DNA of 38,564 bases from Candidatus Woesearchaeota archaeon (GTDB lineage Archaea; Nanobdellota; Nanobdellia; Pacearchaeales; GW2011-AR1), in NCBI GenBank assembly GCA_964485045.1, contig CAZAGO010000004.1, forward strand, positions 1 through 38,564, read 5' to 3'. Under the pieces are notes generated by a model. It was not told the origin of the DNA, made no database searches, and saw only the letters and a list, made by a program, of their open reading frames with translations. Below are positions 154 to 38,564 of this stretch, one piece after another. Made by a program: the position numbers and the translations under genes. How positions within the stretch are numbered: the first letter of the stretch is position 1; each line of letters opens with the position of its first letter.

Positions 154-789
154 TTACTTCTTCTTTGAGGCGGGCGCTGCCGCTGGTGCTTTGGCTGCCT
201 CCTTACCTTCTTTCTTCGTATCCTCTATCTGTTTGAGTATCTTATCTTGTTCTACTTTTAGTTTAGCAAAATGCTTATTCAATAAATCTTTCTTTTCTTG
301 AGAAGGCTGAGTTTTTCCTTCAGATATTTCTTTATCATATTTGCCTTTATCAATATCCTTTTCAATCTCAGAAGCAAATTTATTTTCTATTAATATTCCA
401 AGACTACCACAACTTCCAACAACTGTTTTAACCGCTGCCTTTAAATTATCAGATAAAAGATTTGGAGATTTTGTTTTTGCTATTGCAATTATTTGTTCTA
501 TTGAAGCATTTGCAACTTGAACTTGTTTCTGAACTCCTGAACCTTTTGTAATTTTAAATTCTGATTTTAAAAGTTCTGCTGCTGGAGGAGAAAAAACATT
601 AACTTCTATTTTTCCAGTAGAAGGTTCTAAATTTACTTCTACAGGAACTTTCATTCCTTCAAAGTCTTTAGTTGCTTCATTTATCTTTTGAAGAACAAGA
701 TTCATACTAATTCCGGTAGGTCCAACTTTCTGACTAAGAGTTGGTCCTGGTTTCATATTTCCTCCTTCGGCAAGTATCTTAATTATCAT
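154..789 (-). CDS. rpl11: 50S ribosomal protein uL11 with a ~50-aa Lys/Glu/Ala/Pro-rich C-terminal extension
   Basis: N-terminus IKILAEGGNMKPGPTLSQKVGPTGISM matches the uL11 signature. ATG start. Lies downstream of spt5, as in archaea generally. Confidence 0.93.
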   Translation of the reverse strand: MIIKILAEGGNMKPGPTLSQKVGPTGISMNLVLQKINEATKDFEGMKVPVEVNLEPSTGKIEVNVFSPPAAELLKSEFKITKGSGVQKQVQVANASIEQIIAIAKTKSPNLLSDNLKAAVKTVVGSCGSLGILIENKFASEIEKDIDKGKYDKEISEGKTQPSQEKKDLLNKHFAKLKVEQDKILKQIEDTKKEGKEAAKAPAAAPASKKK

Positions 790-1048
790 TTTTATACAGT
801 GTGGGATTATTTAGTTTAATTAATCTTTCTTTTAAATCTGCAAGGCCATATTTAGAATAATCATTTTGTTCTGCACAACCGCTTGTTTTAGCTAAATTTT
901 CTAATCTATTAATTTCCTTTCTTAAACAAATTTTTCTTATTTCATTATACTCTTCTAAGATACTGCTCATTTTTTTCTCCCATTTATTTATTACATCCCC
1001 CAATGGAGTTTTTATTGTTTCATAATCTTTTTCTAAACACTCATTCAT
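779..1048 (-). CDS. hypothetical 89-aa protein (predicted helical/coiled coil) inserted between spt5 and rpl11
   Basis: ATG preceded by AGGAG 7-8 nt upstream. Overlaps the spt5 stop by 8 nt and the rpl11 start by 11 nt. I recognise no family. Confidence 0.55.
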   Translation of the reverse strand: MNECLEKDYETIKTPLGDVINKWEKKMSSILEEYNEIRKICLRKEINRLENLAKTSGCAEQNDYSKYGLADLKERLIKLNNPTLYKNDN

Positions 1049-1812: not shown

Positions 1813-3687
1813 TCACTTTATCTTCATTTCAAATGAACCATCCCAATCTTTTGGAGGGGCATGCTTAGAATATTCCTTACATCTTTCTATGAATAATATG
1901 CAAGATTTATCTTTTGGTTCTTCTTCCAAGCATTTCTTAAATCTCTTTTCAGCTTGAGAAAATTTTTTATCAAAATAAAGCGAAAGAGCTTCTTCGTATT
2001 CTTTAGTAAAATTTTTTTTGTAAGCTTTCCATAGCAGTTCGTATATTTCAACAGCATTTTTTTTACCTTTTACCTTAACCCTATCTAAAAGCCTGCATTC
2101 AAAATCTTCTTTAATTAAATCTCTAGTCTCTTTTGAAAGAATTATTTTCACTCCATATTGCTTTGTTAACCCCTCTAATCTTGAAGCAATATTAACTGCA
2201 TCGCCCATTGCAGTATAATCAAATCTTTCATCCGAACCCATATTTCCGATTACTGCATCACCAGTATTTATTCCACACCCAATATTTATTTCTGGAAAAT
2301 TTTTTTCTTTCCAATCCTCTTTTAGAGATTCTAGCTTTCTTACTTGTTCTATTGCAGAATTACAAGCCATTTTTGCATGTTCTTTTTGAAAGAGAGGAGC
2401 ATTCCAAAGTGCCATTATTGCATCTCCTATAAATTTGTCAACTGTCCCTTTATTTTTTAAAATAATTTTAGTCATCTCGGTAAGATACTCATTTATTAAA
2501 TTAACCAATTCTTCAGGAGATAATTTCTCACTTATAGAAGTAAACCCTCTTATATCACTAAAAAAAACAGTAATATTTCTTTTTTCTCCTCCTAATTTTA
2601 GTTCATGTTTCCCTTTTAAGATTTCATTCAAAAGCTCTTTACTTATATACTTTCCAAAAGCACCGGTGAGATATGTGCTATGTTTTTTTTCTTCAAGATA
2701 ATTCAATGCAACTCCCGCTCCAGTGAATATAAAAAGAGATATTGGAAAAAAGAAAAAATCAATAAGATAATTATAATTATTAAAAAAGAATATTCCTGCG
2801 AGAGAATAAATAAAAATTATCAAAAGAAGAAGAGGAATAAGATAATATATTTTTATTCTTGAAAAAAAGAAAAATCCTGCAAAAGAAAAAAGAAAGACTA
2901 AAAAAAAGATAGAAAAAGTTCCTTGTTTTTTTAAGAAACTTTCTAAAAAAATATTTTGAATTATATTTGCATGAACTTCTACTCCTGGCATAGCTATTCC
3001 TTTTGAAGTTGGGACAAAATAATTATCATGAAGATTTGGAGCCGTTGCTCCAATTAAAACAATTTTTCCTTTAAAATCAAAATTCCCTTTAAGAACTTCA
3101 TACGCTCCAATAGAATAAAAAGCATTTGGACTCGAAGCAAAATTTATTGAATAAATCCCTTCTTTAAAATTGCTTCTTCCAGAATATGTTTTGTACACTT
3201 CAAATGCAAAAGGAAGTTCATCTTGCAAAATTCCAACCTCCACCTCTCTCAAAACTCCATCTGAAGAAGAAAGTAAATTTGTATATCCCGTATTCTTTTC
3301 AAAAATAGGGTGAAATAAATTTCCAGAAACAATCTCAGAAGCTAAAACGACATTATTCATTGACAAAAGAGTATCGTTTAAAGAAGAATCATTAGTGCTT
3401 GGCTCAAAAAAAGAAACATCAATTCCTACAACCTTTGCTTCTTTTAATTTTGGTAAAAGTTCTGAAAAAACTTGTCTATCCCAAGGCCATCTACCTATTT
3501 TATTTATGCTCTCATCGTCTATCTTTATTATAACTATATTTTCCAAAGGTCTTTTTTCTCCCTGAAGACTATCTCCCAGAACATTTCTAACATGAGAAAA
3601 AGAATTAACAAAAATAAAAAATGAAAAAATAAATAAAATTAAAAAATAAACGAAAAGGCTCTTTTTAGAAAAATATTTTTTTTGCAT
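1813..3687 (-). CDS. membrane sensor: CHASE2 ectodomain + class III adenylate/guanylate cyclase domain + C-terminal helical tail
   Basis: CHASE2-like IVIIKIDDESINKIGRWPWDRQ...GIDVSFFE, followed by a three-helix TM block. Cyclase motifs: FFSDIRGFT, DKFIGDAIMALW, GINTGDAVIGNMGS, GDAVNIASRLEG. Tail ends PPKDWDGSFEM. Confidence 0.85.
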   Translation of the reverse strand: MQKKYFSKKSLFVYFLILFIFSFFIFVNSFSHVRNVLGDSLQGEKRPLENIVIIKIDDESINKIGRWPWDRQVFSELLPKLKEAKVVGIDVSFFEPSTNDSSLNDTLLSMNNVVLASEIVSGNLFHPIFEKNTGYTNLLSSSDGVLREVEVGILQDELPFAFEVYKTYSGRSNFKEGIYSINFASSPNAFYSIGAYEVLKGNFDFKGKIVLIGATAPNLHDNYFVPTSKGIAMPGVEVHANIIQNIFLESFLKKQGTFSIFFLVFLFSFAGFFFFSRIKIYYLIPLLLLIIFIYSLAGIFFFNNYNYLIDFFFFPISLFIFTGAGVALNYLEEKKHSTYLTGAFGKYISKELLNEILKGKHELKLGGEKRNITVFFSDIRGFTSISEKLSPEELVNLINEYLTEMTKIILKNKGTVDKFIGDAIMALWNAPLFQKEHAKMACNSAIEQVRKLESLKEDWKEKNFPEINIGCGINTGDAVIGNMGSDERFDYTAMGDAVNIASRLEGLTKQYGVKIILSKETRDLIKEDFECRLLDRVKVKGKKNAVEIYELLWKAYKKNFTKEYEEALSLYFDKKFSQAEKRFKKCLEEEPKDKSCILFIERCKEYSKHAPPKDWDGSFEMKIK

Positions 3688-3696
3688 TTACTGCAT

Positions 3697-4524
3697 TCAA
3701 AGAGAAGCGTTCATCTCTTTTATTTTATTTGTTATAAAAATTATTTTTTCAACTGAATCCAACTTTATAGGGGATTTATCTCTTATTTCTTCTAAATTTA
3801 TTTCCCCTCTATCTGCTTTCTCCAAATAATCTTGTATATCTTCATCGGTAAACTCGTATCTTTCTTTAAGCATATCTATCTTTTTTTGGTGCTTGGCTAA
3901 TTCTAAATTTCTCAATTCTTTTAGATGTTTTATTACTTCAGCCTTTTTTGTTAAAATAATCTCTTTTTCTTCGGAGGTCATTTCTCTCTCCTTTAAAATC
4001 TGTCCAAAGTCTTCTATTGCTTTTCCCTCTTCAACTAAAAAAGACTGTTCCATTTTCTCATAATCAACTTTTCCTTCTCCTACAAATAAAAGGGAATCGT
4101 TAAAATAAAATCCTGTCCCTCGCACAGAAGCAACGCTTGTGCTTGTCCTAATTGTATATTTGTTTATACCTAATAATCCTGTAACCTGGCTCCATGTTCC
4201 ACCATTCTCTTGGACAAGCTCTAAATTCTTCTTAGCAATCTCTTTTAAAGTAATCGTAGTTCCAGAATCTAAAACAACAACCACACTTTCATAAAGAATT
4301 ATAGAAGCGCTACCAGTATCCGATACAGAGATTACATCTTTCTCTTCTAAAATTTGACTTTCAAAAACTTCTTTTCCATTAATAAAAACACTGTCTTTTT
4401 CAACTAAGAGCCTAGCGCTTATAGTTTTTGAAGAAACAAAAGAAAGATATAAGACTAAAAATATAACAAGAATGACTGCAAAAATTGATGTGAAAATTAT
4501 TATTTTTTTAAGGGGAATATCCAT
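3697..4524 (-). CDS. membrane-anchored FecR-domain protein with C-terminal coiled coil
   Basis: N-terminal TM helix (IIIFTSIFAVILVIFLVLYL). FecR-like beta region SASIILYESVVVVLDSGTTITLKEI...YTIRTSTSVASVRGTGFYF. Lies 9 nt upstream of the cyclase gene. Confidence 0.65.
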   Translation of the reverse strand: MDIPLKKIIIFTSIFAVILVIFLVLYLSFVSSKTISARLLVEKDSVFINGKEVFESQILEEKDVISVSDTGSASIILYESVVVVLDSGTTITLKEIAKKNLELVQENGGTWSQVTGLLGINKYTIRTSTSVASVRGTGFYFNDSLLFVGEGKVDYEKMEQSFLVEEGKAIEDFGQILKEREMTSEEKEIILTKKAEVIKHLKELRNLELAKHQKKIDMLKERYEFTDEDIQDYLEKADRGEINLEEIRDKSPIKLDSVEKIIFITNKIKEMNASL

Positions 4525-4545
4525 AGAATATTACTGTTTTTTAAG

Positions 4546-4553
4546 TTTATAAA
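4546..4553 (-). promoter_or_regulatory. TATA box (TTTATAAA) for the FecR-cyclase operon
   Basis: Palindromic octamer centred 25.5 nt from the ATG at 4524, directly after the ftsZ stop. Confidence 0.55.
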
Positions 4554-4558
4554 AATAC

Positions 4559-5731
4559 TCATTCAAGAAAATCTATTCCAAGCTCTTCCTCTATCTCTTT
4601 ATGTTTTATTCTCTCCCTTCCTTCTCCATGTCCTAGAATTTGAGAACTCTTTACCCCTGTAACTATAAGTAAAACTCTTATTGATTTATCCATATCCTCT
4701 GCTATTTGGGCCCCCCAAATTAATTTTGCCTCAGGATTGAGTTTTTCACCAACAGCCTCTATTATAGATTTACATTCTTCCAAACTCATATTTGGTCCTC
4801 CAACAATATTAACTAAAGAACCGGTAGCATCCGCAATATCTACATCAAGCAGAGGATTTTGTATTGCCTTTTCTACAGCTTCTATTGCTCTATTTTCTGT
4901 ATCTGCCTCTCCCATTCCAATGAGAGAAACTCCTCCTCCAACCATAACTGCTCTTATATCTGCAAAATCTAAATTTACCAGTCCAGATGTTGTTACAAGT
5001 TCTGTTATACCTTTAACTGCATTTGTTAGTATTTCGTCGGCAATTTTGAACGCTGTGTGAAGAGGCAAATCTGGTGCTAATTCTAATAATTTATCATTTG
5101 GAATAACGATAAGTGTATCAACAATTGATTCCATTTTATCTAATCCATCCATCGCATTTTCTATTCTCTTTTTTCCTTCTATTGTAAATGGAAGAGTTAT
5201 TATTCCAATTGTGAGAGCTCCTTGCTTTTTTGCAAGAGAGGCTACTACTGGTGCAGCTCCTGTTCCTGTTCCTCCTCCAAGCCCACAAGTTATAAAAATC
5301 ATATCCGCCCCAGAAATTTTCTTTTTTATCTCGGATTCGGATTCCTTTGCAGCTTCCTGCCCAACTCTAGGATTACTTCCAGCACCTAATCCGTGCGTCA
5401 ATTCTTTTCCGATAAGTATCTTTTGATCAGCATTTGCATATAGTAAATCCTGGGCGTCAGTGTTTATTGCAATTAGCTCTCCTCCTTTTATTCCAATCTC
5501 CCTCATTCGACTAAGAGAATTTCCTCCCCCGCCTCCAACTCCTATAACTTTTATCTTTGCTGCTTGCTTTTTTATGAGTTCCGCAAGCTCCTTATCTATC
5601 TCTCTAACTTCTTGAGAAATATCTGAAGGGTACTTAGGAACGGTATTTTTTGTATAAGTATTTTCCATCATAAAAATAACCTCTGATTTTTTTAAACTCT
5701 CTAATAGGCGATGATGAGCAATTTCTTTCAT
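4559..5731 (-). CDS. ftsZ: cell division GTPase FtsZ
   Basis: Motifs GVGGGGGNSLSRM, NTDAQDL and the tubulin signature GLGGGTGTGAAPVVA. The true start may instead be the internal MM at 5671/5668. Confidence 0.93.
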   Translation of the reverse strand: MKEIAHHRLLESLKKSEVIFMMENTYTKNTVPKYPSDISQEVREIDKELAELIKKQAAKIKVIGVGGGGGNSLSRMREIGIKGGELIAINTDAQDLLYANADQKILIGKELTHGLGAGSNPRVGQEAAKESESEIKKKISGADMIFITCGLGGGTGTGAAPVVASLAKKQGALTIGIITLPFTIEGKKRIENAMDGLDKMESIVDTLIVIPNDKLLELAPDLPLHTAFKIADEILTNAVKGITELVTTSGLVNLDFADIRAVMVGGGVSLIGMGEADTENRAIEAVEKAIQNPLLDVDIADATGSLVNIVGGPNMSLEECKSIIEAVGEKLNPEAKLIWGAQIAEDMDKSIRVLLIVTGVKSSQILGHGEGRERIKHKEIEEELGIDFLE

Positions 5732-10347: not shown

Positions 10348-10424
10348 TATAAGTTAATTATTCCTTCCGGCGTTTTATGGAATAAAACGATGTAGGATAG
10401 AACTATAAGTTAATTATTCCTTCC
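10348..10424. repeat. 21-nt perfect direct repeat (10348-10368 and 10404-10424) flanking a 7-bp hairpin
   Basis: TATAAGTTAATTATTCCTTCC occurs twice, 56 nt apart. The second copy encodes the last 7 codons plus stop of the minus-strand gene. Hairpin CGTTTTA-TGGAA-TAAAACG lies at 10371-10389. Confidence 0.85.
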
Positions 10425-10753
10425 TTCGTTAAAGCAACAAATCTTACACCCATTGGAAGATCAATTAAAGCAGAAATTAAAGCCATGTGTTCTTTTCCAT
10501 CTCCAGATGCAAGACTCACTGAAACTTCCAACCCTTCAAATTTTCTATTAAGTTTTTCCTTAAATTCCTCTTTCAAATCCTTTATTCTTTTATTTAAATC
10601 TACTTTTATAAATTCAAAGGGCTTCTCATGAGTAAAACCTTTTGCAAAATCGTCTCCCAATATAAAAATTTTATCCCATTCGCCTTGTTTCATTAAACCA
10701 GAAACCTGTCCCCAAGTCCCTTTTCCAGAAGATAATAATGCCACGAGTTCCAT
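10403..10753 (-). CDS. hypothetical 116-aa Rossmann-like protein (start uncertain; the ORF extends to 10849)
   Basis: MELVALLSSGKGTWGQV...VSLASGDGKEHMALISAL. A CTTATAAA box is centred 26.5 nt upstream of the ATG at 10753. The longer ORF only adds an AT-rich 32-aa extension. Confidence 0.5.
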   Translation of the reverse strand: MELVALLSSGKGTWGQVSGLMKQGEWDKIFILGDDFAKGFTHEKPFEFIKVDLNKRIKDLKEEFKEKLNRKFEGLEVSVSLASGDGKEHMALISALIDLPMGVRFVALTKEGIINL

Positions 10754-10904
10754 GAAAGAATAAAAAATTATTCTATTTATAAGGATTATTGTGTTTTTTA
10801 AAAGAAGTTTTAATAAACTTATTTCTAAAACAAAACGTATAAAATTCATTCAAGATTTAAAATCAATAAGTTAACTTTATAAACCCAAAATTTCTAAGAC
10901 AAAT

Positions 10905-12856: not shown

Positions 12857-12877
12857 CTAGTTGAAGCTGGAAACTAG
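12857..12877. terminator. hairpin CTAGTT-(9 nt)-AACTAG between convergent rpl12 and the 93-aa gene
   Basis: 6-bp stem inside a locally GC-rich ~50-nt island (12831-12880). Overlaps the stop codon of the minus-strand gene. No clear T-run follows it on the plus strand. Confidence 0.3.
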
Positions 12878-13155
12878 AGACCCTTCTTAGTTAGAATTTC
12901 AAGAACAAAAGATTTTTCCTTATCAGAAATTAAGAGGCTAGATAATTTTCCTGTTTTTAATTCTTCTCCATTAATTTTAGATTCACGAATGTCAAAACTA
13001 TAAATTACTGGATTAAAACCTTCTTTAAGCAAAAGCCTCCCTCTTCCATTTAAATCATTTCCGATATAAACCATTGGCTTTTCAGAAACCAAATAAATTC
13101 TATTGTATTCTAAGTTTGGGTAATTCTCCTCTCTCAAAAAAGAATCATTTTTCAT
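12874..13155 (-). CDS. hypothetical 93-aa protein
   Basis: ATG with TTTTTATA (13177-13184) centred exactly 25.5 nt upstream. I recognise no family. Confidence 0.55.
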   Translation of the reverse strand: MKNDSFLREENYPNLEYNRIYLVSEKPMVYIGNDLNGRGRLLLKEGFNPVIYSFDIRESKINGEELKTGKLSSLLISDKEKSFVLEILTKKGL

Positions 13156-15243: not shown

Positions 15244-15498
15244 GCAAAAGTTATTCTAACTTTAGCTGCATTTTGAACAACACTTAAATTTTCAAAACAC
15301 AAACAAGTTCGATTCTCGCAACTTTCTTCGGAGGCAAAAATCCCAAAGGATTTTGGACTGCGACGCGGAACATTTAGTTCCAGCGCGGAGGCAATTGAAA
15401 AATAAACCTTTTGGAAAGGTTTCCAAACCAGAAATTTCCAAGAGTTGCCCTTCAAGAATAAGTGGAAAATAGAAAAAAACCTGGAGGTTGTTTTCAAC
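15244..15498. repeat. orphan paralogue of the rpl1 leader element, bounded by the 17-bp tRNA-Ser 3'-end repeats
   Basis: 15444-15497 versus 11015-11068 is about 44/54 identical. AAGTT..CAACTTT..CGGAGGCAA is shared, and the CGGAGGCAA motif occurs twice here, with extra hairpins inserted. The ORFs the track calls here and at 10877-11068 have similar 'proteins' only because the DNA is similar. Confidence 0.7.
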
Positions 15499-15625
15499 GC
15501 CGCCGCCAGGAATCGAACCTGGAAGCCCGAAAGGGCCCTGCTTTCTTGCTACTTCCTCGGGAAGGAGAAGTATGAACATTGTTCATCATCTCAAGGCAGG
15601 TGCATTACCATTGTGCCACGGCGGC
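15498..15625 (-). tRNA. tRNA-Ser (anticodon UGA) with a 47-nt intron at the canonical 37/38 position (intron 15543-15589)
   Basis: Acceptor GCCGCCG/CGGCGGC. Anticodon stem CCTGC/GCAGG, loop CTTGAG|intron|A. Long variable arm GCCC-TTTC-GGGC-TT (class II). T arm CCAGG-TTCGATT-CCTGG, discriminator G. BHB-like structure: CTTG pairs with intron CAAG, and 3-nt bulges sit at both splice sites. Confidence 0.85.
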
Positions 15626-17570: not shown

Positions 17571-18578
17571 TTAATTAGGCTTTTTTTGCCTATACATTTC
17601 TAAAAAAATCAAAAGATAAGCTATTGCTAAAGGACCTATTAAAAATCCAAGTATTCCAAAAAGGAAAAATCCTCCAATCATTCCAAGGAAAACTAAAGAT
17701 GTAGGCATACTCGTCCTTCTTGAAACAATCATAGGTCTTAAAATATTATCAACAGTAGATGCTATAACTCCAAATATCAAAACCCCAAACGCTTGAAAAG
17801 TATTTTGAGCTATAAGGAGATAGATTGTAACTGGCAACCAAATTAAGAAAGGCCCAAAAATAGGGAGTATAGATGCTACAATAGCGAGAATTGTTAAAAT
17901 AAGCGCATTAGGAACTCCAAATAAAAATAAACTGATCCCTACAATTGCTCCCTGAATAAATCCTACTATAATAATTCCATAAAGAACTGAATATGTAATC
18001 CCCTTTGAATAATTAAAAAAACGTTCATCAACTTCTTTTGAGAAAGGAGATAAGCTTTTAACATATTTACCTAGTTCATCTGTATCTCTTAAAAGATAAA
18101 AAAAAGTTAAAAAAACTACAAAAAATTGCAAAGCCAGTGAAGGAAAATTTAATAAAATACTTGAAAAAGAATTTGAAAGAGAATTTGCTGAACGAGTAAT
18201 AAAAGATTTAATTATAGAACCCACCTCATGAGAAAATTGTTCAGATGCAAAAAAAGAAGGGGAGATTTTTTTTAATATGCCCACAAAATCCATTTGCTGA
18301 GAATTTGCATAAATCTTAAGAGACTGTTCTATTGCAATTGGAAGAAAAAACCATATGCACACCACAAGAAATATTGCAAAAATAATGCATATTAAAAATG
18401 CTGAAAAATTTTTGGAATGGGTTTTTTTATAAAGAAAATTGTAAACCGGAGAAAAAACAAATGCTAACAACATTCCAAGAATTATTGAAATAAGTATTGG
18501 TTTTAAAAGCAAAAAACATACCACTAACAGAAGGCAAAGCAAAACAATTATCCCTGTTTTTCTAAAATATTCCTCCAT
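17571..18578 (-). CDS. AI-2E family (PerM/UPF0118) permease
   Basis: About 8 TM helices and the C-terminal conserved region DNILRPMIVSRRTSMPTSLVFLGMIGG. Confidence 0.75.
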   Translation of the reverse strand: MEEYFRKTGIIVLLCLLLVVCFLLLKPILISIILGMLLAFVFSPVYNFLYKKTHSKNFSAFLICIIFAIFLVVCIWFFLPIAIEQSLKIYANSQQMDFVGILKKISPSFFASEQFSHEVGSIIKSFITRSANSLSNSFSSILLNFPSLALQFFVVFLTFFYLLRDTDELGKYVKSLSPFSKEVDERFFNYSKGITYSVLYGIIIVGFIQGAIVGISLFLFGVPNALILTILAIVASILPIFGPFLIWLPVTIYLLIAQNTFQAFGVLIFGVIASTVDNILRPMIVSRRTSMPTSLVFLGMIGGFFLFGILGFLIGPLAIAYLLIFLEMYRQKKPN

Positions 18579-18675: not shown

Positions 18676-19404
18676 ATGAATTTTATAAAAAAGATATCTG
18701 AAAAAAATTTTGATGAATCAGTTCATTTACAATTTCAAAAATTTTCTAAGGGAGAATTTAGAAATAGGGCAGTAATTAATGCAAAATTTTCAGGAGGAAA
18801 ATATACTCTAAATACTTCTGCTGAATTTGCTAATGAATTAGTTAAAGATGTTGCTGAAAAACTTGGAACTACAAAAACAAAAATTACTGGAGCCATAGTT
18901 TCCACCCAAAATTTAAAAGAGAATCCAGAATTTAGTTTACTTCTTGCACATGCAGAAGTTAAACAATTTCAAGGAGTTAAAAGATTTATAATTGATGAAG
19001 AAATGTGTGGTAAAGATATCTTAAAATTTTTGGAAAAAAATCCCAAAGCTTTTTTTGCATTAAGCTTTGATTCTTTAAATGGAAGTATCCTTAAAATAAA
19101 ACCAAAAGCCCCAAAATCTGGAAAACCGGGTACAAAAGGAGAGGAAATTCCAAAACCAGATTTTTGTAAATTAATCACAAATGACTCTTCTCTTGCTAAA
19201 AGTTTTATATTTGAAAGAACAGATTTTAAACAAGCAGAAATTGTTCATAATTTTATAATTAATGAAATAATAATTCCTTCTGAGTTAAAGAATGAAAAAG
19301 ATTTCGCAAAAGTAAGAGAAAAAGCTTTAAGAAAAGGAATAGTACTAAGAAAAGCGAAAATAGATGGAAAAGAAATTGAAACAAAATTAGAAATTGAAGC
19401 ATAA
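18676..19404 (+). CDS. hypothetical 242-aa protein heading the ribosomal-protein supercluster
   Basis: ATG with TTTAAAAG (18647-18654) centred 25.5 nt upstream. Two domains joined by a Lys/Pro-rich linker (KPKAPKSGKPGTKGEEIPKP). I recognise no family. Confidence 0.55.
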   Translation: MNFIKKISEKNFDESVHLQFQKFSKGEFRNRAVINAKFSGGKYTLNTSAEFANELVKDVAEKLGTTKTKITGAIVSTQNLKENPEFSLLLAHAEVKQFQGVKRFIIDEEMCGKDILKFLEKNPKAFFALSFDSLNGSILKIKPKAPKSGKPGTKGEEIPKPDFCKLITNDSSLAKSFIFERTDFKQAEIVHNFIINEIIIPSELKNEKDFAKVREKALRKGIVLRKAKIDGKEIETKLEIEA

Positions 19405-32182: not shown

Positions 32183-32584
32183 ATGATAAATGAATTAATA
32201 AATGCAAACCCAAAAGTTGCGGTAATATGCCTCTCTATAGTTGTTACTCTTCTTATGACTTTAGTTACAAAATTCTTTACAGATCAAATAAAGATGAAAG
32301 AATTAAAAGGGAGACAAAAAGAACTTCAAAAAAAATCTAAAGAAGTGAGAGGAGATTTAAAAGAAATGGAAAAAATAAATCAAGAGATACTTACAATTTC
32401 TATGGAGATGATGAAGCACTCTTTCAAACCTCTTTTAATTACAATGATTCCTCTCTTTGTGATTTTTTGGTGGGCAAGGAATAGCTTTGCTTCTACTACT
32501 CTTGCAAGCGCTTGGATTTGGTGGTATATTGGAACTAGCCTTGTATCAAGTATGATATTCAGAAAAATACTAGATGTACACTAA
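32183..32584 (+). CDS. DUF106 / EMC3-TMCO1-like membrane protein (archaeal YidC/Oxa1-like insertase candidate)
   Basis: TM helix, then a Lys/Glu coiled coil (MKELKGRQKELQKKSKE), then MEMMKHSFKPLLITMIPLFVIFWW. Lies at the usual archaeal position downstream of secY. Confidence 0.55.
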   Translation: MINELINANPKVAVICLSIVVTLLMTLVTKFFTDQIKMKELKGRQKELQKKSKEVRGDLKEMEKINQEILTISMEMMKHSFKPLLITMIPLFVIFWWARNSFASTTLASAWIWWYIGTSLVSSMIFRKILDVH

Positions 32585-34735: not shown

Positions 34736-35713
34736 ATGTGGCAAGCATTAATTATTCCTTTATTAGTAAGTTTTTTTACAACACTTTTTTTTGTTCCATT
34801 TTGGATAAAAAAAGCAAAAGAACTAGGATTTACTGGAAAAGATATACATAAAATCTCAAAAGAAAATGTGGCGGAATCCGGAGGAGTCCCAGTATTATTT
34901 GGTTTTATTCTAGGAAGTTTAAGTTATATTGCAATTATGACTTTTGTATTTTATTCAAATGAAAATATTTCAAAAATATTTGTTTTATTAAGCACAGTAC
35001 TAATTGCCTCCTTTATAGGTGTAATCGATGATTTACTTGGCTGGAAAAAGGGGTTGCCTAAAAGAATTAGAATATTACTTCTTTTATTTGCAGCTGTTCC
35101 TTTAATGGTTGTCAATGCTGGTAATTCTACAATGATGGGGATCGATTTCGGATTATTTTTTCCATTAATAATAATTCCTATAGGAGTAATCGGAGCAACT
35201 TCAACATTTAATTTTCTCGCAGGATACAATGGATTAGAATCTAGCCAAGGTATAATTCTTCTTTCAGGAATTGGAATTGCTACTTTTTTAGTGGGAGAAA
35301 AAAATCTTAGTATTATTTCTTTGATAATGATTTTTTGTCTTCTTGCATTTTATCTTTTTAATAAATTTCCTGCACAAATCTTTCCAGGAGATACTCTTAC
35401 TTATTCGGTTGGGGCGTTAATTGCATGCCTTGCAATTTTAGGAGATGTGGAAAAACTTGCCCTCTTCTTTTTTATCCCTTACGGATTAGAAACAGTCTTA
35501 AAATTAAGAGGAAAGTTACAAAAAGAAAGTTTTGCTAGAGTAAAAGAAGATGGAAGCTTGGAAAACCAATATGAAAAAATGTATGGATTAGAACATATAG
35601 CAGTAAAAGTAATAAGTAAATTTAAGAAAAAAGTTTACGAAAAAGACGTTGTTTATTTAATAAATGGGTTTCAAATAATAATTATTCTCTTAGGATTTCT
35701 CCTTATTTACTAA
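34736..35713 (+). CDS. GT4-family polyprenyl-phosphate HexNAc-1-phosphate transferase (AglH/MraY/WecA-like)
   Basis: GVIDDLLGWKKGL, FNFLAGYNGLESSQG, FPGDTLTYSVG, and about 10 TM helices. TTTAAAAA (34707-34714) is centred 25.5 nt upstream. Confidence 0.8.
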   Translation: MWQALIIPLLVSFFTTLFFVPFWIKKAKELGFTGKDIHKISKENVAESGGVPVLFGFILGSLSYIAIMTFVFYSNENISKIFVLLSTVLIASFIGVIDDLLGWKKGLPKRIRILLLLFAAVPLMVVNAGNSTMMGIDFGLFFPLIIIPIGVIGATSTFNFLAGYNGLESSQGIILLSGIGIATFLVGEKNLSIISLIMIFCLLAFYLFNKFPAQIFPGDTLTYSVGALIACLAILGDVEKLALFFFIPYGLETVLKLRGKLQKESFARVKEDGSLENQYEKMYGLEHIAVKVISKFKKKVYEKDVVYLINGFQIIIILLGFLLIY

Positions 35714-35747
35714 GGTTTTTAAACATATTATTCAATAAAATAAGATA

Positions 35748-38564
35748 ATGAATGAGAAGGAATTTGCAAAAAAAATTTTTGAAGATAAGCTTACATTTAG
35801 TTTAATTATACTAGGCATACTTTTTTTTATTTTTAGTGCATTTAATATGTTTAAAATTTCACTAGGAAATAATTTTGTTACTCAAATAATAAATATTTTT
35901 TCTCCTACGATATGGATTCTTCTTGCAATAACTCTTATTGTGTCTTCAATTTTAGCTTATTTTAAAAAATATAAATTAATGGCTCTTATTCTTTTGGTTG
36001 CTTTAATAGGCATTACTGCTACAATAAGAACAAGCAACATAAACGATTTAAGAGATATGACTAATGGTGATTGGACGCTTGGACCAGATTTAGATCCTTT
36101 TCTTTATTTACGACACGCAAATGAAATTATAAATGGAACGCTTGAAAATCCAGATATGATGAGGGCTGCTCCTCTTGGAGCAAATAATTATGCTTATCAG
36201 AGCCTTATGCCATGGGCAATGGTTTTAATTTGGAAAATTGTTTCTATATTCAAACCGATATCCATAACTTATGCGGCAATAATTGCACCAGTTATTTTCT
36301 TTTGTATTTCTATAATTGGTTTTTTCTTGTTCGTTTATTTTTTATCTCTTCTAAAGTTTTCTAAAAAAATATCCATGATTACTGCTATTTTTGCAAGCAC
36401 GTTATATTCTATTATCCCTTCTATGGTTGCAAGAACTGTAGCAGGAGACCCAGAAATAGAAAGTCTTGGAATGGTCTGGTTTTGGTTTGCTTTCTTATTT
36501 TATCTTTTAGCTTGGAGAAGAGAAGAAATAAATTACAAAGTCTGTTTAGCAGTTATTGCTGGAATTTTTACAGGATTAATGTATATGACCTGGGGGGGAT
36601 ACAGGTATATATACATGGTTATTTCCATGGTCGCTTTTATTCTCTTCTTATTTGAAAAAGATAAGAAAGAAAATATAATAATTTTTTCATCTTGGGCAAT
36701 TACAGCTATAGGTATAGAAATTATAAAAGGGGGGCAAATACAATCTCTTTTTATGAGAGTGAGTGATATAGGTTTTGCTATCGTTGTTCTTTTATTTTTA
36801 ATAACTGATTGGATTTTATCAAATACAGAAATAAATAAAAAAATTAAGGAAATAAATCTCCCAAAACCAATAATTAGTATAATTTTAATTGGAATATTAG
36901 CATTTATTTTTTTAATTATATTTAATAGAGAATTACTTTTTAGCTTTCTATCACGATTAGTAGAAGGATTTCTTTATCCTTGGGGAAGAGAAAGAATAGG
37001 ATTAACCGTTGCAGAAAATAGAGCTCCTTATTTTATAGAAGCCTTAGGAGAGTTTGGAAATCTCACTTGGATATTCTTAATTGGAACTGTTTTTTTATTT
37101 TACCAAGCCATAAAACATTTCAAAAAAGAAAAAGAGAGCGATTTTGAGAAGTGGATATTTATAACAATTTCTGCTGGAATTGCTGCAATATTGTTTTATG
37201 TTGGAAGAGTATTAATTGGTGGAGATTATGCCTCAATGATTGAACAAATCGATTTTTTAATTTTATTGTCTTTGGTACTTTCTTTTGTTGGAGCAATTTA
37301 TTTTTTCATGAGAAAAAATATAAATTCTAGTCTTAATTTTTCTTTTTTGTTTTTTATACTCGCCTTAATATTTAGTAGAGTGTCTCCTCAGAGTAGTAGA
37401 CTAAACGGAGAATCCCTTTTCTCACAAGGAATTTACTTCTCGGGATTAATTTTATTTGGAGGCCTTATTGGAATAATTATAATTCTTGCATATAAAAATA
37501 AAGATGATATCTTAATAGAGAAGTTTAAAAAAATAAATTTAATGTATATTGTCCTTTTAGTATTCTCTTTTTGGGGAATAATTTCTATAAGAGGAGCAAT
37601 AAGATTATTCTTTATAATCTCCCCAATGATAGTTTTAGTCTCTTCATTTATACTTGCAGAAGTATACAATCAAAAAAAAGAAAAGAATAAAAAAATAATT
37701 TGGGGGGCAATAATTGTATTTATTCTAATTTTCTCTCAACTGTTTGCTTCTTACACTCTCCAAACACAATATACTTCAAAAGCAATGATTCCTTCTGCCT
37801 ATCATCAGCAATGGCAAGGCGCAATGCAATGGATTAGAGATAATACTCCAAAAGAAAGTATCTTTATTCATTGGTGGGATTATGGTTATTGGGTTCAAAC
37901 AATTGGAGAAAGAGCGACAGTTGTTGATGGAGGACACCAATGGGGGTACTGGGATCATTTAGTTGGAAGATATGTTCTTACAGCTACTTCTCCCGAAATG
38001 ATATTAAGTGCTATGAAAACTTACAATGCTTCTTATCTTTTAATAGATTCTTCGGATATAGGAAAATATCCTGCTTTTAGTAAAATTGGAAGCGACAAAA
38101 ATGGAGAAGATAGATATTCACAGATACCTATTTTCGCCTTAGATGACTCGCAAACAAAAGAAACGTCTAACAAAACAATAAGAGTTTATACTGGGGGAGG
38201 AATTGTTGATGAGGATATAATCTACACTCCAGAAGAAGATAATTCAAACGAAATATTTATTCCAAAGGAAAAGTCTTACCTAATTTTTATTTTAATAGAA
38301 ATTACTAAAGAAAGTGAAGAAAACGCATTAGAACAACCAAAAGCAATATATTATTTTAATAATCAACAGATTTCAATTCCAATAAGATATCTATATTATG
38401 GAGGAGAATTGTTTGATTATGGAGAAGGATTAAATGCGACAATTTCGCTCATTCCAAAAATTAATCCTATAGGGAATAATCAAATGCAATCAGATGAAAG
38501 TGGAGCTGCAATATACATTTCTCCGAAAGTAACCAAAACGGCCTTCGCTCAACTTTATCTTTTA
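35748..38564 (+). CDS. aglB: oligosaccharyltransferase AglB (STT3 family), 3'-truncated by the window edge; absent from the ORF track
   Basis: Hand translation from the ATG at 35748 is open for 939 codons to the window end. It shows a multi-TM N-terminal region with PDLDPFLYLRH, a TVAE (TIXE-like) motif, the hallmark WWDYGYW at 37872-37892, and a DK-like motif DSSDIGKYPAF. Confidence 0.88.
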   Translation, partial: MNEKEFAKKIFEDKLTFSLIILGILFFIFSAFNMFKISLGNNFVTQIINIFSPTIWILLAITLIVSSILAYFKKYKLMALILLVALIGITATIRTSNINDLRDMTNGDWTLGPDLDPFLYLRHANEIINGTLENPDMMRAAPLGANNYAYQSLMPWAMVLIWKIVSIFKPISITYAAIIAPVIFFCISIIGFFLFVYFLSLLKFSKKISMITAIFASTLYSIIPSMVARTVAGDPEIESLGMVWFWFAFLFYLLAWRREEINYKVCLAVIAGIFTGLMYMTWGGYRYIYMVISMVAFILFLFEKDKKENIIIFSSWAITAIGIEIIKGGQIQSLFMRVSDIGFAIVVLLFLITDWILSNTEINKKIKEINLPKPIISIILIGILAFIFLIIFNRELLFSFLSRLVEGFLYPWGRERIGLTVAENRAPYFIEALGEFGNLTWIFLIGTVFLFYQAIKHFKKEKESDFEKWIFITISAGIAAILFYVGRVLIGGDYASMIEQIDFLILLSLVLSFVGAIYFFMRKNINSSLNFSFLFFILALIFSRVSPQSSRLNGESLFSQGIYFSGLILFGGLIGIIIILAYKNKDDILIEKFKKINLMYIVLLVFSFWGIISIRGAIRLFFIISPMIVLVSSFILAEVYNQKKEKNKKIIWGAIIVFILIFSQLFASYTLQTQYTSKAMIPSAYHQQWQGAMQWIRDNTPKESIFIHWWDYGYWVQTIGERATVVDGGHQWGYWDHLVGRYVLTATSPEMILSAMKTYNASYLLIDSSDIGKYPAFSKIGSDKNGEDRYSQIPIFALDDSQTKETSNKTIRVYTGGGIVDEDIIYTPEEDNSNEIFIPKEKSYLIFILIEITKESEENALEQPKAIYYFNNQQISIPIRYLYYGGELFDYGEGLNATISLIPKINPIGNNQMQSDESGAAIYISPKVTKTAFAQLYLL

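Follow-up and report, generated by a model that had tools for sequence, protein, structure and literature searches.

How did two genes encoding an outward-facing sensor and a nucleotide cyclase come to lie between ftsZ and secE in a reduced archaeal genome, and what might they do there? The stretch analysed here, hereafter the window, is the complete 38,564-bp contig CAZAGO010000004.1 of a Candidatus Woesearchaeota archaeon, an AT-rich organism (approximately 29% GC). Its minus strand reads ftsZ, a 34-nt spacer, a 275-aa open reading frame (ORF) for a FecR-like protein, 9 nt, a 624-aa ORF for a CHASE2-cyclase, and then secE, spt5 and L11. A first-pass annotation of this DNA, made from its letters alone, had read the two genes as a recent lateral acquisition from bacteria. 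Our analysis leads to a different answer. We consider it likely that the pair is a two-gene module linking an extracytoplasmic sensor to cyclic AMP (cAMP), which is old in Woesearchaeota/Pacearchaeota-type DPANN archaea and was probably obtained once from bacteria.

The 624-aa protein combines a receptor domain with a complete catalytic domain. The CHASE2 profile PF05226 is matched with 146 bits against a cut-off of 26.3 and is covered from position 7 to position 249 of 257, and the Guanylate_cyc profile PF00211 is matched with 96 bits against a cut-off of 21.9. Hydropathy predicts a cytoplasmic N-terminus with four lysine residues, which fit the positive-inside rule, a transmembrane (TM) helix at residues 10–28, an ectodomain at approximately residues 29–256, and TM helices at residues 257–275, 283–301 and 308–331. 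The CHASE2 domain, with one TM helix before it and three after it, is accordingly predicted to be extracytoplasmic, and the helices are present in the AlphaFold2 (AF2) model, which has a predicted local distance difference test (pLDDT) score of 85. The best PDB matches of the catalytic domain are CyaB of Pseudomonas aeruginosa (3r5g, 2.2e-41) and CyaC of Spirulina (1wc1, 6.3e-34). A Foldseek search with the full model returned matches for the cyclase domain only (1e-11, probability 1.0) and none for the CHASE2 fold.

The catalytic residues are conserved throughout. D378 (FFSDIRGFT) and D422 (FIGDAIM) align with the metal-binding Asp pair of CyaB and CyaC, and N499 and R503 (VNIASRLE) form the transition-state Asn/Arg pair and likewise align with both enzymes. 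K418 and T492 (YTAMG) align with the Lys and Thr of CyaC (DFTAIG) and CyaB (DYTIIG); from the CyaC literature we take these two residues to be the adenine-type specificity pair, with Thr in place of Asp as the signature of class IIIb. All six residues are invariant in the 29 aligned family members, which share 43–73% identity. By these criteria the protein looks like an active class IIIb adenylate cyclase with intact catalytic residues. The C-terminal tail, which ends in PPKDWDGSFEM, is kept in archaeal, candidate phyla radiation (CPR) and other bacterial CHASE2 cyclases, and is on sequence comparison a trait of the family and not a peculiarity of the window protein. The first-pass annotation had described a signal anchor, a CHASE2-like ectodomain, a three-helix TM block, the metal-binding Asp pair, an adenine-type Lys, the Asn/Arg pair and the helical tail. 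Profile matches, hydropathy and alignments agree with each of these elements, T492 being a further residue that it did not mention.

The 275-aa partner is predicted from hydropathy to span the membrane once, at residues 8–26, with the remainder of the chain outside. Its AF2 model (pLDDT 87.9, predicted template modelling score 0.80) consists of a TM helix, an all-beta domain and a C-terminal domain of five helices. The window protein itself scores 19 bits against the FecR profile PF04773, below the Pfam cut-off of 24 (E = 0.002), and matches NCBIfam Lsa33 in part (1.1e-8). By comparison, 35 of 37 members of its family match PF04773 at E ≤ 0.01, the best at 3.7e-10. In Foldseek, the beta domain matches the FecR-type anti-sigma structures 4m0h and 4m0n (2e-7 to 7e-7) and PupR (6ovk, 1.3e-4), with probability 1.0 over 131–137 aligned columns. 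The family-level Pfam matches, the AF2 model and the Foldseek results support the FecR assignment and a FecR/PupR fold of the modelled beta domain, despite the sub-threshold Pfam score of the window protein. The TM anchor and FecR-like beta region proposed at first pass are thus retained, the latter at the level of family and fold. The coiled-coil tail proposed with them is not; it is replaced by a conserved domain of approximately 90 aa, whose five helices are modelled with high pLDDT. No PDB match for this helical domain was returned by Foldseek. The sampled CPR and other bacterial partners match the archaeal hidden Markov model (HMM) only from position 1 to approximately 190, so the helical domain is absent from them. 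Two other identities for the partner were rejected. Weak matches to an S4 domain, found in eight homologues and, through NCBIfam, in the window protein, were judged to reflect a shared beta-motif (V.VNG....L..GD.I). A FecR-type anti-sigma factor is ruled out by the N-terminus, in which only seven residues precede the TM helix, so there is no cytoplasmic anti-sigma domain; no gene for an extracytoplasmic function sigma factor (sigma-70 r2/r4) or a TonB-dependent receptor was found among the window genes scanned.

The two genes appear to be expressed as one unit. The TATA-like box TTTATAAA lies inside the 34-nt ftsZ spacer, its centre 25.5 nt 5′ of the ATG at 4524. Across the window, YTTAWAWW motifs peak 20–29 nt 5′ of gene starts (8 of 29 genes, with 0–5 in the other bins). 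A TATA-like box also lies 25–35 nt 5′ of the orthologous FecR-like start in the loci designated L003, L004, L008, L001, L002 and L014, and it recurs there even where the genomic context of the pair differs. TTTATAAA is thus a putative promoter of the two-gene unit, and its distance of approximately 26 nt from the first ATG suggests a leaderless or short-leader transcript. In the archaeal loci with enough upstream sequence, the FecR-like gene lies directly upstream of the cyclase gene, with a gap of 0–10 nt or an overlap. Because the two genes are 0–3 nt apart or overlap in orthologous loci, their co-transcription is likely. The first-pass annotation had given the same co-orientation, 9-nt gap and box position, and its coordinates agree with ours; its naming of the neighbours as ftsZ, secE, spt5 and L11 is confirmed by profile matches.

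This arrangement is constant across a large family. Full-length relatives of the cyclase fall into more than 120 clusters at 90% identity, with 43–96% identity to the window protein, and those that are named are labelled Nanoarchaeota, Woesearchaeota, Pacearchaeota or simply ‘archaeon’. A profile search of 1.84 billion representatives assigned at least 275 clusters at 50% identity to the partner family (E ≤ 1e-30), almost all of them 270–300 aa long with the whole profile covered. The two genes are adjacent and in constant order in every archaeal locus with room for both (L001–L005, L007, L008, L014 and L089–L092), and the order of FecR-like gene followed by CHASE2-cyclase gene is also found in CPR/Patescibacteria and some other bacteria. 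Two members of the archaeal clade bear unexpected labels. One is a basal pair at L014 (4805–7944), assigned to an ‘uncultured Methanosarcinales archaeon’, with a 384-aa partner that contains the archaeal helical domain; the other, P0084, lies on a 569-kb contig labelled ‘Methanococcoides sp. SA1’. The family may reach beyond DPANN, or these records may be mis-assigned or mis-binned.

From these features we propose the following mechanism. The partner, held by its one TM anchor, would display the FecR-fold beta domain and the archaea-specific helical domain on the outside, where the CHASE2 ectodomain of the four-TM receptor would face the same compartment. The partner may act as a co-sensor or modulator of this ectodomain. 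This co-sensor model is the best supported: the ectodomains share a compartment, and the two genes lie side by side throughout and are probably co-transcribed. The three-helix TM block would relay an external cue by way of the signalling helix (residues 313–345 in the model) to the catalytic dimer, and the cytoplasmic class IIIb domain, acting as a homodimer, would convert ATP to cAMP. By analogy, this cue could be a macromolecule or a signal from a host surface. Bicarbonate modulates class IIIb enzymes such as CyaB and CyaC, and on the same grounds it may act on the enzyme described here as well. A more specific proposal is that, in Woesearchaeota/Pacearchaeota-type DPANN archaea, the pair senses contact with a host or surface; the helical domain and CHASE2 would recognise a macromolecular cue from the host or an adjacent cell, and cAMP would control the physiology of the symbiont. 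Drawn by analogy with the CHASE2 cyclases of Sinorhizobium meliloti, which sense a plant protein, it is in our judgement quite unlikely; if true, it would give Archaea their first defined signalling system that synthesises cAMP, and would make the pair a module exchanged between ultra-small episymbiotic radiations, the CPR bacteria and the DPANN archaea.

The origin of the module was addressed with cyclase trees of 88 sequences, built by neighbour joining (NJ) only, with Dayhoff-6 recoding to damp AT-driven compositional bias. Outgroup sampling came from a contig scan for cyclase homologues, which returned mostly bacterial loci and approximately seven archaeal loci among the matches listed. 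The archaeal cyclases form one clade, with 98.5% bootstrap support and 80% after recoding. The only archaeal-labelled sequence outside it is a truncated cyclase without CHASE2 (L061, 5725–6969; 414 aa) from a ‘Nanoarchaeota’ metagenome-assembled genome; it groups with CPR sequences and may have been acquired separately, or its contig may be mis-binned. The archaeal clade is recovered in 160 recoded replicates, and in 140 of them its immediate neighbours are CPR-like; the top non-archaeal HMM scores for both proteins also belong to CPR. Among the matches listed, the nearest bacterial homologues of the cyclase, also from CPR, share 35–40% identity over the full length, and the bacterial diversity of the family is far broader than the archaeal. 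It is from these comparisons that we infer the direction and donor of transfer, and, the trees being distance-based, we propose only tentatively one ancient transfer from a bacterium to an archaeon, probably involving CPR/Patescibacteria. The first-pass view that the architecture and the FecR/CHASE2 pairing are bacterial in type is well founded, as bacterial clusters of this kind are documented (PMC9239204, PMC5192318). Its statement that class III cyclases are sparse in archaea agrees with published reviews, in which they are described as rare (PMC8646023).

The junction at which the pair lies was compared in an FtsZ-anchored scan of metagenome contigs, which yielded 80 loci with FtsZ 75–100% identical, 66 of them with room downstream. 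In 50 of these 66 informative relatives secE comes straight after ftsZ, in agreement with the first-pass claim that the pair is inserted between the two genes; 14 carry other short inserts and 2 a FecR-like gene, one of the two being the window’s own organism. The insertion is nevertheless not private to this genome: the pair occupies ftsZ|secE in at least four other lineages (L003, L004, L008 and L089/L123), with cyclase identities of 58–73%. Relatives share the collinear block TYW1–M50–aIF5A–FKBP–ftsZ–secE–spt5–L11, within which the ftsZ|secE and secE|spt5 junctions are variable slots. The cargo at both junctions (L093–L172) includes a family of 72–96 aa at nine loci, a family of 508–774 aa with an N-terminal hydrophobic segment at six loci, and a 369-aa ORF with a radical-SAM-like CxxxCxxC motif (for example, L124 1976–2266, L117 7323–9647, L108 3981–5090 and L127 7182–8971). 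In the closest pair-bearing relative, two small ORFs of 134 and 142 aa lie between the cyclase gene and secE (L003, 10003–11164), which is further turnover at the ftsZ–secE junction. In other sublineages the pair is intact but located elsewhere: a marine group has it between rpoD and secDF, and L001, L002 and L092 have it in unrelated surroundings. The marine loci place it directly upstream of secD/secF (L090, 4124–9424; L091, 578–5840), a second Sec-translocon context; the Sec-gene neighbourhood in both contexts may be a coincidence.

How old the pair is at this site can be judged against its flanks. Its GC content, GC content at third codon positions (GC3) and codon usage are indistinguishable from those of the rest of the window. 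The window and L003 are separated by a distance of 0.21 in the flanks and 0.27 in the cyclase; for other locus pairs the values are 0.33–0.38 and 0.37–0.43, respectively. Two pair-less loci, L094 and L095, have secE 8 nt after ftsZ, and every one of their flank genes is as near to the window as that of L003; the tree of concatenated flanks joins them to the window and leaves the pair-bearing L003 outside this group. This branching order favours loss, which is also the simplest explanation for the absence of the pair in these two loci. The first-pass reading, a recent bacterial acquisition inserted at ftsZ–secE of this reduced genome as a new cAMP output, could draw on the direct ftsZ–secE linkage in the 50 relatives (including L094 and L097, with FtsZ 93–95% identical), on an architecture typical of bacteria (PMC9239204) and on a junction that serves as a slot for other cargo genes in relatives. 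It is set against a large, monophyletic archaeal clade, occupation of this site by the same pair in four or more further lineages (58–73% identity), pair divergence proportional to that of the flanks, native GC, GC3 and codon usage, and closest bacterial homologues only 35–40% identical among the matches listed, and we regard it as highly improbable. An archaeal-only phylogeny with the same pair at the same position, the pattern that the first-pass annotation had itself named as speaking for vertical inheritance, is largely what was found. More probable, though in our view still unlikely, is a spread of the pair among related DPANN lineages on homologous flanks through recombination at ftsZ/secE, in place of ancient presence and loss. 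The scatter of pair-bearing loci in the FtsZ and concatenated-flank trees, the diverse alternative cargo at ftsZ|secE and secE|spt5, and the relocated pairs in L001, L002, L090/L091 and L092 would fit such a history, whereas the scaling of pair distances with flank distances is as expected from co-inheritance and the position of L003 outside the window and the pair-less L094/L095 favours loss. In addition, no repeats, integrase or mobility genes were noticed beside the pair in the gene lists of the window and its relatives, in which no dedicated repeat search was made. We therefore prefer to see the module as long resident in the lineage, with vertical inheritance, occasional relocation and repeated loss. 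Several points weigh against this account and the signalling role proposed with it. Loci with the pair are interspersed among many loci without it in both trees, and the many unrelated cargo ORFs held at the ftsZ|secE and secE|spt5 junctions of relatives mean that insertions occur. The divergence of cyclase and partner tracks that of the flanking proteins with r = 0.89, a value calculated from 10 pairs that are not independent and owed largely to a single close one. A single clade of archaeal and CPR-like sequences has only 26–49% support, the CPR sequences forming a grade and not a clade, in trees that are distance-based (NJ) only. As for the signalling role, the product, the ligand, dimerisation and the FecR–CHASE2 contact are what we infer, and no gene for a cyclic nucleotide monophosphate (cNMP)-binding, GAF, CARF or CRP-like protein or a phosphodiesterase was found among the window genes scanned on this 38.5-kb contig. 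The first-pass remark that no cNMP receptor is visible thus holds for all of them; approximately 15 obvious ribosomal-protein ORFs and three ORFs without Pfam matches (10403–10849, 12874–13155 and 18676–19404) yield no receptor candidate.

Two further explanations concern the function of the pair. It could be a defence-type, Pycsar-like system, or contain another non-cAMP cyclase whose product triggers an effector: the cyclase domain matches the PADLOC PycC models (best 1.1e-30), and the neighbours of the pair in L001 include PIN/RHH and HEPN/nucleotidyltransferase genes. The PycC matches are, however, confined to the generic class III domain with scores comparable to that of PF00211, and we judged them to be generic cyclase-domain homology. 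The partner is extracellular and has neither a PADLOC match nor a cNMP-binding domain, K418 and T492 are adenine-type class IIIb specificity residues, CHASE2 with four TM helices is a signal-transduction architecture, and most contexts of the pair consist of housekeeping genes, so that a defence-type role has hardly any likelihood. Somewhat less remote, and still very unlikely, is a functional tie to cell division or protein secretion, through ftsZ/secE here and rpoD/secDF in the marine subclade. Two independent contexts adjoin Sec components, and in the window the pair is co-oriented with ftsZ and secE; yet the pair and secE each have a TATA box of their own, many close relatives keep ftsZ–secE without the pair, and the contexts in L001, L002 and L092 are unrelated, as is other cargo in the same slot. 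Given that the family does not keep the pair at one position, we rejected a functional link to ftsZ or secE. The coordinates of the module and its flanking genes are collected in Table 1.

Table 1. Positions in the window of the FecR-like/CHASE2-cyclase module, its predicted domains and the two genes that flank it
Feature	Position	Strand	Basis
CHASE2 receptor fused to class IIIb adenylate cyclase (predicted), 624 aa	1813–3687	−	ORF, Pfam, PDB matches, conserved residues
CHASE2 extracytoplasmic sensor (aa 23–265), with TM1 (aa 10–28) before it	2893–3621	−	PF05226 1.8e-42; hydropathy
Three-helix TM block (aa 257–331), then long signalling helix	2695–2919	−	Hydropathy; model helices 257–277, 280–305, 313–345
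Class III catalytic domain (aa 369–549)	2041–2583	−	PF00211 2.6e-27; CyaB 3r5g, CyaC 1wc1; Foldseek
Three-helix TPR-like tail (aa 555–624), ending PPxDWDGxF..K	1816–2025	−	Conservation; model helices 558–608
FecR-domain partner, 275 aa, type II membrane protein	3697–4524	−	ORF; family-level Pfam; AF2 and Foldseek
Partner TM anchor (aa 8–26), K6 and K7 on cytoplasmic side	4447–4503	−	Hydropathy; model helix 5–30
Partner all-beta FecR-fold domain (aa 37–181), extracytoplasmic; motifs ILYES, GxTW, ASVRGTxF	3982–4416	−	Alignments; model; Foldseek
Partner C-terminal helical domain (aa 184–274), archaeal clade only among sampled sequences	3703–3975	−	Model; HMM coverage
Spacer between the two genes, atgcagtaa, 9 nt	3688–3696	−	Sequence
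TATA-like box TTTATAAA of the two-gene unit	4546–4553	−	Sequence; motif position peak; similar boxes at orthologues
ftsZ, upstream flank (context, outside the module)	4559–5731	−	TIGR00065 4e-127
secE, downstream flank (context only)	1588–1770	−	TIGR00327 1.3e-16; TATA-like box of its own at about 1792–1800

The remainder of the window contains archaeal genes, including those for Spt5, SecE/Sec61-gamma, L11, aIF5A, a ribosomal-protein cluster, SecY and AglB/STT3. Between spt5 and L11, and overlapping both, lies an 89-aa ORF without a Pfam match (779–1048, minus strand); a gene is called at the same position in L085 (89 aa) and L089 (127 aa), and the ORF may encode a real small conserved protein. 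A 128-nt tRNA at 15498–15625 (minus strand) is detected by Rfam with the full model spanned (44.7 bits), which implies an intron, and is not reported by ARAGORN. A gene for an AI-2E family transporter is located at 17571–18578 (minus strand), and a small EMC3/YidC-like insertase gene directly 3′ of secY at 32183–32584 (plus strand). At 34736–38564 (plus strand), a family-4 glycosyltransferase gene precedes an AglB/STT3 oligosaccharyltransferase gene, which continues past the contig end and encodes 939 aa or more; the two form an N-glycosylation gene pair.

Public databases already label archaeal members of the family as adenylate/guanylate cyclases, and our literature searches found no paper describing a FecR/CHASE2-cyclase family in DPANN or Woesearchaeota. 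According to a review, cAMP is present in archaea, but its synthesis, degradation and binding have not been assigned to any characterised archaeal protein (PMC10249747). The present family would add a large, conserved group of class IIIb cyclases in DPANN, with intact residues and always paired with a surface FecR-fold protein, and its soluble catalytic domain is directly assayable as a candidate for archaeal cAMP synthesis. Signalling proteins are very few in these organisms, which makes a conserved receptor that faces outwards a good candidate sensor of the host or environment. Among near-identical syntenic blocks, the module is present in some and absent from others and thereby also illustrates cleanly how genes come and go in reduced genomes. 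Its value lies in lineage, distribution and testability rather than in a new type of system.

Comparison with known systems places each part of the module. The metal-binding Asp pair, the Lys/Thr pair and the Asn/Arg pair are shared with CyaB (3r5g) and CyaC (1wc1); these enzymes have no CHASE2 domain or FecR partner and are soluble or differently anchored. In CyaB the sensor module is MASE2, a membrane domain, and the N-terminal domains of CyaC are of other kinds. The extracytoplasmic beta domain of the partner has the fold of the FecR/PupR anti-sigma factors (4m0h, 6ovk), from which the window partner differs in having no cytoplasmic anti-sigma or STN domain, sigma factor or transducer. Distinct from Pycsar, the module has no effector with a cNMP-binding domain, its partner being an extracellular FecR-fold protein. 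The CPR pairs (L009, L010, L012, L034, L052 and L055) have the same gene order and are the nearest non-archaeal relatives of both genes, but their partners are longer, at 350–700 aa, and lack the archaeal helical domain.

The best-studied CHASE2 cyclases are CyaD1, CyaD2 and CyaK of S. meliloti, in which a host-derived protein signal raises cAMP, perception of the signal requires the outer-membrane beta-barrel NsrA, and the receptor is Clr of the CRP family (PMC13001267, PMC5498481). The window cyclase resembles them in its CHASE2 ectodomain, TM block and class III cyclase; NsrA and Clr are known only there, and identity to the alphaproteobacterial homologues is approximately 30% among the matches listed. 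In the Burkholderia ‘BiofilmReg’ system, a LysM-FecR gene lies directly upstream of a CHASE2 histidine kinase gene, with a gap of approximately 10 bp (PMC5192318). As in the window, the FecR gene is immediately 5′ of a receptor with one TM helix, CHASE2 and three TM helices, whereas its output is a histidine kinase and response regulator, and the peptidoglycan-binding LysM domain is absent from the window partner. In Campylobacterota, a CHASE2 class III cyclase is encoded beside a FecR-domain envelope protein, described as outer-membrane, and one signalling pathway has been proposed for the two; the cluster usually also contains a cAMP phosphodiesterase and a TPR protein (PMC9239204). The cyclase architecture is the same, including the TPR-like tail of many bacterial homologues. 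In the window, by comparison, the cyclase itself ends in a short TPR-like tail, and neither there nor in the other archaeal loci compared does a gene for a cAMP phosphodiesterase or a TPR protein adjoin the pair. The archaeal partner crosses the membrane once and carries an additional helical domain (approximately 90 aa), in a host without an outer membrane. The architecture and the FecR/CHASE2 pairing are thus already known from bacteria, and what is new is the archaeal lineage and its lineage-specific partner domain.

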